NCBI GenBank assembly: GCA_000432855.1
Contig: HF990861.1
Coordinates: 9,363-73,362 of the forward strand
DNA: 64,000 nucleotides
From: Firmicutes bacterium CAG:822
GTDB taxonomy: Bacteria > Bacillota_I > Bacilli_A > RF39 > UBA660
Direction: 5' to 3'
Position 1 is the stretch's first letter, and each line of letters begins with the position of its first letter. Below the pieces are notes generated by a model, which saw only the letters and a list, made by a program, of their open reading frames with translations, was not told the origin of the DNA and searched no databases. This document shows, piece after piece, positions 3,905-59,263 of the stretch. The position numbers were made by a program, and so were the translations under genes.

Positions 3905-3979
3905 GCAGGTGTAGTACAACGGTTAGTATATGGCCTTGCCAAGGCTAAGATGCCGGTTCGATTCCGGTCACTTGCTCCA
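3905..3979 (+). tRNA. tRNA-Gly (anticodon GCC), CCA encoded
   Basis: Hand-folded cloverleaf. Acceptor GCAGGTG/CACTTGC, anticodon stem TGGCC/GGCTA, loop TTGCCAA, T-arm GCCGG-TTCGATT-CCGGT, discriminator T followed by CCA. Confidence 0.9.
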
Positions 3980-5858: not shown

Positions 5859-6314
5859 TCAAAATTCAATTCTATCTCTAATAAATCTATCATACATCCA
5901 CTCAGGTCCTTCATATAACAGTTGTAAAACTGTTTCCTGAAGTTCAGCTTTACTCATCGATTTAATATATTTATGTAACTTAATTTCTAACTCTTCTTCG
6001 TAAGCCTCATATTCTTTTTGAGCTTCTTCAACTTCCTTTAAAAACCTATCTATCTCTTTTGGAAAAACCGTAAAGTATAATGCTACTATATGTTTACAAA
6101 CAATCCTTCTATCCTTTGCATGAGGACAATCACACTTTGATTTTCTAGGATGACTTACATCCATAAATACATTATACTTCTCACCATTACTACCCAAAGC
6201 AATACCAGTATAAACGTCATCATCTATTTGTTTATAACTTTTTATTTTCCCATTTTTAGCATAATCAAGTCCACGCCATACTGAATTTCCACTTGCAACA
6301 TCAATTAATCCCAT
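5859..6314 (-). CDS. SWIM zinc-finger protein
   Basis: 151 aa. CDCPHAKDRRIVCKHIVALY matches the CxC-x(n)-CxH SWIM signature, followed by a coiled-coil-like acidic C-terminus. Confidence 0.7.
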   Translation of the reverse strand: MGLIDVASGNSVWRGLDYAKNGKIKSYKQIDDDVYTGIALGSNGEKYNVFMDVSHPRKSKCDCPHAKDRRIVCKHIVALYFTVFPKEIDRFLKEVEEAQKEYEAYEEELEIKLHKYIKSMSKAELQETVLQLLYEGPEWMYDRFIRDRIEF

Positions 6315-40256: not shown

Positions 40257-40330
40257 TGGAGGGCCCGATTGGATTTGAACCAACGATCAGGGAGTTGCAG
40301 TCCCATGCCTTACCACTTGGCTACAGGCCC
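40257..40330 (-). tRNA. tRNA-Cys (anticodon GCA), copy A, CCA encoded
   Basis: Hand-folded. Acceptor GGGCCTG/CGGGCCC, anticodon loop CTGCAAC, T-arm GTTGG-TTCAAAT-CCAAT, discriminator T73. Own promoter TTGACT-18-TAAAAT at about 40374-40345. Confidence 0.85.
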
Positions 40331-47366: not shown

Positions 47367-47515
47367 ATTTTCTCCCTTTTAAATTTTCTTAAAAAATATT
47401 ATTACAACATCCCATTAACATAATTTTTATTTATGTTCTAATATAATTGTAGCACCTAGACCTAACTTTAGGTCAAGTATTAATTTATAAATTCTAAGAA
47501 ATAAAACAAAATCAT

Positions 47516-47550
47516 AGAAAAATCTAAAGTGATATTATCTTCACTTTAGA
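47516..47550 (-). terminator. terminator closing the retron operon
   Basis: Read on the minus strand: TCTAAAGTGA-N8-TCACTTTAGA followed by TTTTTCT, overlapping the last codons and stop of the 278-aa ORF. Confidence 0.65.
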
Positions 47551-48360
47551 TCTATCTTCTTTATAATCCCTATTCATAATATTATCAAGTCTCTCCATAG
47601 ATAAATTTAAACCAAGTTTCTTATTAAATTCATCCATAAAACGTCTTGCTCGTTCATACCCTCTTTCAGGTATTGTTCTTCTTGAATATAAAAGTTTTAA
47701 AGCTACAAACTCCAACAATCTATCCCTCAAATAATTATCTAAATATTTATTGTTTGATGCCTTTTCAAGTTCAGAAAAATCTAATTTATCATAATGTTCA
47801 TCAATAAATAATTTAACTAAATTGTAAACGTCAATTTCATCCACAGATACATACTTCTCTATCTCATAATCCATATCAACTAAGCCCGTTTCCGCATCCG
47901 CACTCACCACAAAATCTTTATACTTAGAAAAATACTTATCATTCTCTGTTCTTTCAACTTTATAATATACCTTTTTACTTACACCTACAACTTTATCCAT
48001 ATCATAAATAGGATAATTTTTTTGGACATTTGATCTATATAAACCCTCAAGTAATTTTTGTTGATTATCAGTCAATCTAAAAAACAATTGTTTAATATCC
48101 ATAACATCAGATAACTCTTTAAACTTACTAAAATCACTAGTCATCTTTCCATCATAAAAATCAAACTCTCTTTCGGGAAACTTAATTTCATACCACGCAG
48201 CAAGCCTATCAATCATATCTTGCATTTCATCAATTCCAATAAAAAGTTCATACCCTTCATCAATCAAATGATTAAACATATATAAAAACTTCTTATTCTC
48301 ATTTAAATCATATAATTTTTCATCTTCACTATAAAAATTTTTCAATTCTTCTTTTGTCAT
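47524..48360 (-). CDS. retron-associated protein of unknown family (candidate effector), 278 aa
   Basis: ATG 48360 lies 13 nt after the RT stop, preceded by SD AGGGTGG. Begins MTKEELKNFYSEDEKLYDLNENKKFLYMFNHLIDEGYELF. No TM, P-loop, nuclease or protease motif was recognised. Confidence 0.6.
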   Translation of the reverse strand: MTKEELKNFYSEDEKLYDLNENKKFLYMFNHLIDEGYELFIGIDEMQDMIDRLAAWYEIKFPEREFDFYDGKMTSDFSKFKELSDVMDIKQLFFRLTDNQQKLLEGLYRSNVQKNYPIYDMDKVVGVSKKVYYKVERTENDKYFSKYKDFVVSADAETGLVDMDYEIEKYVSVDEIDVYNLVKLFIDEHYDKLDFSELEKASNNKYLDNYLRDRLLEFVALKLLYSRRTIPERGYERARRFMDEFNKKLGLNLSMERLDNIMNRDYKEDRSKVKIISL

Positions 48361-48373
48361 TCCAACCACCCTA

Positions 48374-49333
48374 CTATAAATTATTAAATATTTTTAAAAT
48401 AAACTCTCTATATTTAAAAAATTCTAAATCCTCGCTATTTACCATTAAAACAAAATTAATTTTTCCAAGTAAACTACGTAAATAACTAAATTCATCTTTT
48501 ACATTTATTCTCTTTAAATGTGAATAAAGTCCATATTTCTTTATATAATAAACTTCTTGTCTAATTTTCCTTCTTTTAACTTTTAAAACCTGCGGCTTCT
48601 CATTAACCGTAATCCCTGTGACTTGCTGGGACATATTACTATAAATAACATGAATCTTATCATAATTTAACTGCATTCCCATTTTCTTTAATTCATCTTT
48701 AACTTTGAATATAACCATTTTGACATTGAAATCACCAGAAAAAGTCATATCATCTGAATAACGAGTATAACTTATATTATTCTTTTCACAAAATAATCCA
48801 ATTTTTTCATCAAAATCCTGCATAATCAAATTAGAAATATAAGAAGAAGTTGGTGCACCTTGTGGTAAAAACTCATTATACGTACATAAATAAGTTAAAA
48901 CAGTTCTCGCTTGTTTAGGAAAATATTCTTCTAAAAATACCTTATTATAAACATCCATAAAACTAATATTATTAAAAAAATCTTTAATATCAAGTTTTAA
49001 TATAAGCTTTTTATTAACATGCATATTAGCATTATCTTTAACTGACTTTCCCTTAACATAAGCCATCGCATATTTTGAAACTTTAAAACCACTTAAAACA
49101 TTATCCAAAATATTTCGCTGTACCTTTTTTAAAGTATAATTAGGTTCATAAATAATTCTTTTATTACCATCTTTTTTTAAAATTACAGTTTTTTTATAAT
49201 TTTTTTCTATATTATTACTAAGTGTATAAAGTTTTCTTATTTTTTCTTTATCACTTAGTTTTTCATCAATTAAATTAAGAGATAACAAAAATTCATTAGC
49301 CATATCTTTTGTAACATTATCAAGCATTTTCAT
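48374..49333 (-). CDS. retron-type reverse transcriptase
   Basis: ~319 aa. Motifs DNANMH (NAxxH), LDIKDFFNNI, LPQGAPTSSYISN, YTRYSDDMTFSG (YxDD), VTGITVN. No extra fused domains. Start is at 49333 or 49327, after AAGAGGTG. Confidence 0.85.
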   Translation of the reverse strand: MKMLDNVTKDMANEFLLSLNLIDEKLSDKEKIRKLYTLSNNIEKNYKKTVILKKDGNKRIIYEPNYTLKKVQRNILDNVLSGFKVSKYAMAYVKGKSVKDNANMHVNKKLILKLDIKDFFNNISFMDVYNKVFLEEYFPKQARTVLTYLCTYNEFLPQGAPTSSYISNLIMQDFDEKIGLFCEKNNISYTRYSDDMTFSGDFNVKMVIFKVKDELKKMGMQLNYDKIHVIYSNMSQQVTGITVNEKPQVLKVKRRKIRQEVYYIKKYGLYSHLKRINVKDEFSYLRSLLGKINFVLMVNSEDLEFFKYREFILKIFNNL

Positions 49334-49344
49334 CACCTCTTAAA

Positions 49345-49535
49345 AAGAGCAATACCCAAGATATTGTAATATGAAAACGTGCATAAAGCGTAAGCGACTA
49401 CACGTAGTGTAGTTAAGCACGGTGGAATATTACAATCATAATGATTTAAATTCTATAATCATTATTGTAACACTTAATCTAGTCCCTTAGCGACTCGCTA
49501 AAGTATGAAATAATTTTCAAACCACTATTGCTCTT
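49345..49535 (-). ncRNA. retron msr/msd non-coding RNA
   Basis: A perfect 10-bp inverted repeat AAGAGCAATA (49535-49526) / TATTGCTCTT (49354-49345) brackets several hairpins. A G (49525) directly follows the 5' repeat. It lies between an extended -10 promoter and the RT gene. Confidence 0.7.
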
Positions 49536-49541
49536 ACACCG

Positions 49542-49552
49542 ATTATACCACA
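49542..49552 (-). promoter_or_regulatory. extended -10 promoter of the retron ncRNA/RT transcript
   Basis: TGTGGTATAAT read on the minus strand, immediately after the hsp20 terminator (49551-49576). The -35 is weak. Confidence 0.55.
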
Positions 49553-53937: not shown

Positions 53938-54011
53938 TGGAGGGCCTAGTCGGATTTGAACCAACGATCAGGGAGTTGCAGTCCCATGCCTTACCACTTG
54001 GCTATAGACCC
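53938..54011 (-). tRNA. tRNA-Cys (anticodon GCA), copy B, CCA encoded
   Basis: The D-arm and anticodon arm are identical to copy A. Acceptor GGGTCTA/TAGGCCC and T-stem GTTGG/CCGAC differ from copy A by paired changes. Discriminator T73. Confidence 0.85.
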
Positions 54012-59036: not shown

Positions 59037-59263
59037 CCTCCTAACAAAAAAATCACATCCAATAAGGACGTGATTGACGTGGTACCACCTTAATTTATAA
59101 GTTAAACTTACCTCAATAACTATAACGCGTTACCGATATATCTTTACATATACAGCTCCTAAGGTGAATTCATAAAAGATTATTACTAACTTCCACCAAC
59201 CGTTAGTTCTCTATAAATAATTACTTCTATTACTACGTCTTAATCTTCGCTTTTAAAATTTCA
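59037..59263 (-). promoter_or_regulatory. T-box riboswitch leader (Phe specifier) of pheST
   Basis: Read on the minus strand. -10 GGTATAAT (59275-59270). Stem I contains AGAGA...GGTGGAA. Specifier loop GAATTCACC has TTC (59168-59166) followed by a purine. T-box AATTAAGGTGGTACCACG (59095-59078). Terminator ATCACGTCC...GGATGTGAT followed by TTTTTTT (59074-59046). Confidence 0.85.

Follow-up and report, generated by a model that had tools for sequence, protein, structure and literature searches.

The retron and its downstream neighbor

The window analyzed here is a stretch of 64,000 nucleotides (nt) from Firmicutes bacterium CAG:822 (GenBank assembly GCA_000432855.1, contig HF990861.1, positions 9,363 to 73,362). 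Its minus strand carries a retron, composed of a promoter, an msr-msd noncoding RNA (ncRNA) and a reverse transcriptase (RT) gene, which is followed by a gene for a 278-amino-acid (aa) protein. In minus-strand order the locus reads gltX, hsp20, a gap of 251 nt, the RT open reading frame (ORF), the 278-aa ORF and an aldo/keto reductase gene (Table 1). An earlier note, made from the letters of the DNA, had described promoter, ncRNA, RT and 278-aa protein as a compact tripartite retron with a candidate new effector, flanked by hsp20 and an aldo/keto reductase gene; Pfam names both flanks in the same way.

The RT ORF spans 48374-49336 on the minus strand and encodes 320 aa when read from GTG. The ATG at 49327 is preferred over GTG 49336 because it lies 8 nt behind AGAGG, and the resulting product is 100% identical to the deposited 'Firmicutes bacterium CAG:822' protein. 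The translation holds NANMH, LDIKDFF, QGAPTS, YSDD, and VTGITVN, with all catalytic motifs intact, and Pfam detects RVT_1 alone (residues 52-244, 3.9e-22) and no fused domain, as the earlier reading of a plain retron-type RT had it. In PADLOC, the best model is RT_Ec107-like (8.6e-125, 414 bits, profile positions 3-305 of 307), followed by RT_III-A (341 bits, 1.4e-102), while NCBIfam gives retron St85 (1.8e-64). RT_Ec107-like also tops the PADLOC ranking for the relatives L048, L050, and L051 (related loci carry numbers prefixed with L). The ranking of these hidden Markov models (HMMs), rather than a tree, places the enzyme among the retron RTs of the Ec107-like clade.

The region upstream of the RT was compared with 80 metagenomic loci whose RT is 51-61% identical, together with closer loci from a search of the encoding contigs. 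An inverted repeat lies in the same place in 71 of 76 upstream regions, with a G right after the 5′ arm, and the arms vary compensatorily from locus to locus (GCAATA/TATTGC, GCAGTA/TACTGC, GCAGTG/CACTGC). An alignment of 30 sequences yields a structure of 35 pairs that is 98.1% paired, with changes on both sides at 24 of the 35; none of 500 shuffles was as good, and slid controls paired at 32-53%. Within this structure, 6 of the 7 aligned pairs of the a2/a1 helix covary, and the column of the candidate branching G is invariant in 30/30 relatives. The msr hairpin helix is 100% paired with compensatory changes at 4 pairs, and the long stem, helices 4-6 of the family structure, is 97-99% paired and covarying. 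For the window itself, the upstream region has a minimum free energy of −51.4 kcal/mol (z −3.68; 0/200 shuffles as good) in a predicted fold closed by the 10-bp a2/a1 stem, and the a1 arm ends 3 nt before the Shine-Dalgarno sequence of the RT.

A covariance model, R1, was built from 27 relatives with the window and its two nearest relatives left out. Of 83 related RT loci, it detects the ncRNA at 79 and misses only 4, which lack upstream DNA, and its match in the window (Table 1) is thus an independent one. The extended −10 box, the 10-bp inverted repeat, and the branching-G layout of the earlier description are all present. Rfam returns no intron or other family for the region, only chance-level snoRNA and miRNA matches. 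On this comparative evidence the upstream RNA is a real retron ncRNA. One segment of it, the A/U-rich hairpin at 49436-49463 between the msr hairpin and the long stem, is length-variable: compared with L011 and most relatives, the window and L049 have about 23 nt more.

Of 51 distinct related retron loci, found in unrelated contexts, about 40 carry a TGnTATAAT box at a spacing of 3-6 nt ahead of a2. The promoter is therefore part of the retron cassette. A consensus −35/−10 scan did not report the window promoter, which has no −35 match. At the other end, the terminator-like hairpin (−17.7 kcal/mol, z −3.39) overlaps the stop codon of the 278-aa ORF. That ORF starts at ATG 48360, 13 nt past the RT stop and behind GGGTGG, so that the spacing, ribosome-binding site, and terminator first described for it are all present.

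The 278-aa protein was also said to belong to an unrecognized family, and the database searches concur. The protein has no match in PADLOC, whose models of type III-A partners were included, nor in Pfam, NCBIfam, or PHROGs. Its 353 homologs, which form 328 clusters at 50% identity, include none that is named and none with a Pfam domain. DUF5580_C was considered as a domain and judged spurious, as it matched weakly in 8 of 50 diverse family members (best E 3.8e-4). An AlphaFold2 model (predicted local distance difference test score, pLDDT, 83; predicted template modeling score, pTM, 0.77) suggests helical N- and C-terminal parts flanking a three-stranded sheet. With this model, Foldseek gave nothing below E = 1 (best E 2.8 in PDB and 1.4 in BFVD), and the family profile against PDB sequences reached an E of just 0.016 over 59 residues. 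Furthermore, the family is absent from phages and plasmids (tblastn) and from IMG/VR (scan).

Table 1. Features of the hsp20-retron locus in window coordinates
Feature	Position	Strand	Basis or remark
gltX	51712-50072	−	First in minus-strand gene order
hsp20	49968-49588	−	Pfam HSP20 (PF00011)
Extended −10 promoter of the retron transcript, TGTGGTATAAT	49542..49552	−	Direct reading; family-wide box
msr-msd ncRNA, Ec107-like family, 193 nt	49344..49536	−	Covariance model R1, 107.3 bits, E 3.2e-21
a2 arm, 5′ half of closing stem, AAGAGCAATA	49526..49535	−	Perfect 10-bp complement of 49345-49354
Candidate branching G (priming 2′-OH)	49525	−	Directly 3′ of a2
Conserved msr hairpin, CUUUAGCG-AGU-CGCUAAGG	49485..49503	−	8-bp helix
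Long stem with internal CUACAC...GUGUAG hairpin; predicted msd-coding region	49366..49433	−	Helices 4-6 of the family structure
a1 arm, 3′ half of closing stem, TATTGCTCTT	49345..49354	−	Perfect complement of a2
Retron RT, 317 aa, Ec107-like clade	48374..49327	−	PADLOC RT_Ec107-like, Pfam RVT_1, NCBIfam
278-aa protein, unannotated family	47524..48360	−	ORF downstream of the RT
Terminator-like hairpin and U-rich tail	47500..47551	−	13-bp stem 47551-47522, then UUUUUCUAUGAUUUUGUUUUAUUU
Aldo/keto reductase gene	47366-46410	−	Pfam PF00248

Co-occurrence of the RT and the 278-aa family

The two genes were followed from both sides. From the side of the 278-aa protein, with one genome taken per species, 31 genomes encode a relative, all of them metagenome-assembled genomes (MAGs) of gut Bacilli; tblastn with the window RT detected no RT in any of them up to 5 kb from the homolog. 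Likewise, R1 detects no ncRNA in 23 partner loci without an RT. Partners of 62-94% identity always lie directly after gltX-hsp20, and syntenic hsp20-partner loci without an RT carry copies at 94, 85, 71, and 67% identity. In the closest of these, L017, hsp20 is 98% and the partner 94% identical, no RT is present, and the hsp20-partner gap is 71 nt. Partners of 40-45% identity stand in other contexts, likewise without an RT. Contig sizes give one indirect hint on retrons encoded elsewhere in such genomes: contigs of 0.97-1.4 Mb hold four of the partner clusters, while the best 120 RT clusters are all on contigs of at most 0.3 Mb.

From the side of the RT, two family HMMs, one narrow and one from 123 representatives, were run against all ORFs of at least 50 aa, and no member of the 278-aa family was found at any of 84 related RT loci. 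The genes downstream of these RTs are heterogeneous (LepA, OGG, GNAT, NUDIX, HAD, PHP, YlmH, ABC transporter, TfoX_N), and related cassettes end at most 25 nt before, or overlap, the GNAT, NUDIX, HAD, PHP, YlmH, ABC-transporter, and TfoX_N genes. The coupling to these unrelated genes is equally tight; therefore, the tight spacing is a habit of the cassette and no evidence for partnership. The commonest neighbor family accounts for just 16 of 88 related RT loci, and across the 84 loci no protein family is tied specifically to the RT. Homologs of the 278-aa protein thus occur mainly without an RT nearby, and related RTs occur without the family, which speaks against the proposal that it is the effector of a tripartite retron.

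Several neighborhoods of related retrons differ from that of the window. In 16 of 88 related RT loci, the gene directly before the retron promoter encodes a 288-aa ABC-type ATPase (for example L051:3919-4785; further loci are L059, L072, L083, L085, L086, L095-L101, L104, L106, L112-L114, and L127). The ATPase matches PtuA, AriA, mad3, and retron ATPase_I-A/I-B in PADLOC at about 1e-15 to 1e-10, and its copies, absent from the window, are 85-100% identical to one another. This arrangement may reflect synteny within one genus or a true partner in that subclade. In L051 (6034-6879) and L059, the retron is followed by a 281-aa protein with a HEFAH (HExxH-like) motif, and in L050 (6027-7709) and L052 by a 560-aa protein; neither has a Pfam or PADLOC match, and both are unrelated to the 278-aa family. 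The 281-aa ORF of L051 was tried as a distant partner homolog and dropped, as it matches neither family HMM. Finally, the RT at L133:715-1662, 71% identical and accompanied by its ncRNA (99 bits), lies beside Wzz, a ParA-like ATPase, and Bac_transf; this capsule-type neighborhood, which is not that of hsp20, is the only other locus at which a close relative was seen.

History of the hsp20 locus

Three states occur after hsp20. Most lineages have promoter and partner; the window, L011, L134, and probably L135 have promoter, ncRNA, RT, and partner; and L048 and L132 have promoter, ncRNA, and RT without the partner. Compared with the window, the RT is 84% and the partner 78% identical in L011, and 69% and 41% in L134. 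In L132, the RT stop is followed by what is left of the 278-aa gene, a degenerate, frameshifted piece of its 5′ end (5960-6170; ATGACAATTGATGAAATGGAAAATTTTATAAAGAAGGTGAAAAACTTTATAATTTAA...), which shows that a lineage carrying the retron lost the partner. The loci without an RT retain the same terminator and the −10 box, the latter about 25 nt before the partner start codon.

Synonymous divergence (dS) gives the direction of change. For gltX, dS is 0.24 between the window and L017, 0.44 between the window and L011, and 0.29 between L011 and L008, while the dS of the RT between the window and L011 is 0.50. The RT thus diverged about as much as gltX, and the RT-less L008 is sister to L011, which points to vertical descent of the RT and independent deletions. 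This pattern implies separate RT deletions in the L017 and L008 lineages at least, and we reconstruct hsp20 followed by promoter, msr/msd, RT, and 278-aa gene as the ancestral order in the genus. Insertion of the retron into a resident promoter was considered and dropped, because the box is family-wide, the dS fits vertical descent, and L132 keeps a partner remnant. The locus had previously been taken for an inserted unit of about 2 kb. The piece that varies among the closest relatives is only the ncRNA and RT, about 1.16 kb, and it looks as though those relatives lost this piece, not as though the window gained it. Similarly, composition carries no signal of recent transfer, and no GC anomaly is seen at the locus.

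After separation, both parts remained under constraint. The ratio of nonsynonymous to synonymous divergence (dN/dS) of the partner is 0.24-0.30 between pairs without an RT, and that of the RT is 0.20 between the partner-less pair, in which the ncRNA is intact (75-81 bits). Overall, RT dN/dS is 0.17-0.26 at dS values up to about 1. Since each part stays intact under purifying selection after the loss of the other, each has a role of its own that it can fulfill in the other's absence, and decay of one part following loss of its neighbor, as mutual dependence would produce, was seen in neither the RT-less nor the partner-less lineages.

The region downstream of hsp20 is variable within the genus. 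In L011:6852-9520 and L135:1295-3956, a block of HTH_26, TM2, MerR, and Peptidase_S15 genes separates the 278-aa gene from the aldo/keto reductase gene, and this block is absent from the window (47367-47523). Within about 10 kb of the retron there is no known defense gene, no phosphoribosyltransferase (PRTase) gene, and no winged helix-turn-helix gene. Elsewhere in the window, housekeeping features include a T-box leader (113 bits, 59061-59256, minus strand) upstream of ORFs of 348 and 790 aa (59036-55618), the latter of which is PheT according to syntenic loci, and three tRNA genes at 3905-3976 (plus), 40260-40330 (minus), and 53941-54011 (minus).

An Ec107-like retron beside a probably independent gene

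The clade 2 Ec107 branch, which includes Retron-Eco5 (Ec107), has no specific associated protein; just 2 of its 59 members stand beside a PRTase, and PRTase-linked RTs join the branch at a common node (Mestre et al. 2020, PMC7736814). Ec107 was not among the retrons tested for defense by Millman et al. The window retron resembles this branch in several respects: its best HMM, RT_Ec107-like, matches over the full length, it is a minimal msr/msd and RT cassette of about 1.2 kb among ordinary chromosomal genes, and it shows neither prophage linkage nor a conserved associated protein. Whereas Ec107 comes from E. coli, the window retron is hosted by a gut Bacillota MAG with low GC and a small genome; in its genus, the cassette ancestrally preceded one particular unannotated gene, and its multicopy single-stranded DNA (msDNA) is predicted. 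Type III-A retrons combine an RT with a PRTase-like protein, with or without a winged-helix protein, and their RT model is the second best for the window RT. However, the 278-aa protein matches no PADLOC model for III-A partners, and no PRTase was matched by PADLOC or Pfam in the ORFs from 38.9 to 55.6 kb. For an effector found mostly without an RT, the sole precedent is PtuAB of retron Ec78, which is the stand-alone Septu system; unlike the 278-aa family, PtuAB moves with its RT across genomes and has ATPase and HNH domains.

Based on these comparisons, the retron is genuine, with a well-supported ncRNA, and adds a member to the Ec107-like orphan clade, which is already known. We consider it probable that the locus comprises an Ec107-like orphan retron (Mestre clade 2) and a co-transcribed, independent 278-aa gene that is not a retron-specific effector. 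The 278-aa gene is judged not to be an effector because it and the retron each persist under selection without the other, and the partnership is doubted because the pair is never found together outside one syntenic slot. Defense modules normally move as units. Moreover, a common logic of retrons is a toxin held in check by the RT and msDNA, and such a toxin would not outlast the repeated, clean deletion of its antidote, which further argues against an effector.

Several observations weigh against this conclusion and speak for a true tripartite retron, in which a 278-aa effector, harmless or useful alone, would have been recruited in the ancestor of the genus and gated by the RT and msDNA. The strongest is the ancestral order itself, that of a classical operon of promoter, msr/msd, RT, and partner. 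At least three divergent lineages, those of the window, L011, and L134, retain this order with gaps of 2-14 nt, so that the pairing persists from 100 to 69% RT identity, and the single terminator of the unit lies after the partner. In the loci without an RT, the partner is predicted to be driven from the former retron promoter. The 278-aa gene also evolves fast (its dN is four times the gltX value), and it lacks both annotation and a fold match; rapid evolution and the lack of a known function are a frequent look of defense genes. Furthermore, the search of the RT-free genomes covered the 5 kb around the partner, and they may carry a retron elsewhere. Set against these points, the two co-occur at a single syntenic locus and nowhere else, whether one starts from the 84 RT loci or from the 31 partner genomes (0 in each case), either part survives loss of the other under purifying selection, the cassette lies equally close to at least seven unrelated ordinary gene families, and the 278-aa family turns up neither in phage, plasmid, and viral collections nor in PADLOC. 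We therefore regard a gated effector as unlikely, and see a similarly small chance that the family is the ancestral cis partner of this Ec107-like branch in a non-toxic form, as an accessory or effector that also works alone.

It is quite improbable that the retron is a neutral or selfish passenger, kept solely because its deletion risks the promoter of the downstream gene. No related locus has a cis effector, clean loss is frequent and leaves the promoter fused to the ribosome-binding site of the partner, and related cassettes lie mostly in the leader of ordinary genes, all of which such a passenger would explain. However, the constraint on the RT (dN/dS as above, over long divergence), its intact catalytic motifs, the preservation of ncRNA helices by compensatory changes, and the constant retention of ncRNA and RT together argue against such a passenger. 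That there is no retron at all, and the RT derives from a group II intron, diversity-generating retroelement, abortive infection (Abi), or defense-associated RT (DRT) system, has practically nothing in its favor beyond weak NCBIfam cross-matches (group II intron RT 9.6e-12, Drt2 1.3e-13, Drt3a 2.7e-13), as retron HMMs are more than 100 orders of magnitude better, Pfam finds no maturase or endonuclease domain, the upstream a2-G...a1 layout covaries, and Rfam places no intron or other family there.

For the orphan retron with an independent neighbor, the following mechanism is proposed. The promoter would fire a few nt upstream of a2, and the transcript would fold into msr/msd closed by the 10-bp a2/a1 stem. 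The RT would bind the conserved msr hairpins, prime from the 2′-OH of G49525, a candidate priming residue by analogy with established retron biology, and copy the long-stem region, with predicted msd boundaries at 49366..49433, into msDNA. The element would have stood between hsp20 and the lineage-specific 278-aa gene since before these gut Bacilli (the Ca. Coprosoma / CAG:822 group) diverged. Having no terminator of its own, the retron would allow read-through into the 278-aa gene, and it would act via its msDNA, alone or with a factor encoded elsewhere.

If the 278-aa family were a cis partner after all, it would be the first effector candidate for the 'orphan' Ec107 clade, with natural RT-minus and partner-minus genomes as controls. 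For the reading preferred here, of an orphan retron beside an independent gene, the locus adds an Ec107-like member and an ncRNA model from an uncultured gut Bacillota and removes a tempting but unsupported "new effector type". In this clade, tight operon linkage to a retron RT is no evidence for partnership. The genus shows three natural states at one locus, namely, retron with neighbor, neighbor alone, and retron alone, and thereby offers a clean comparison.

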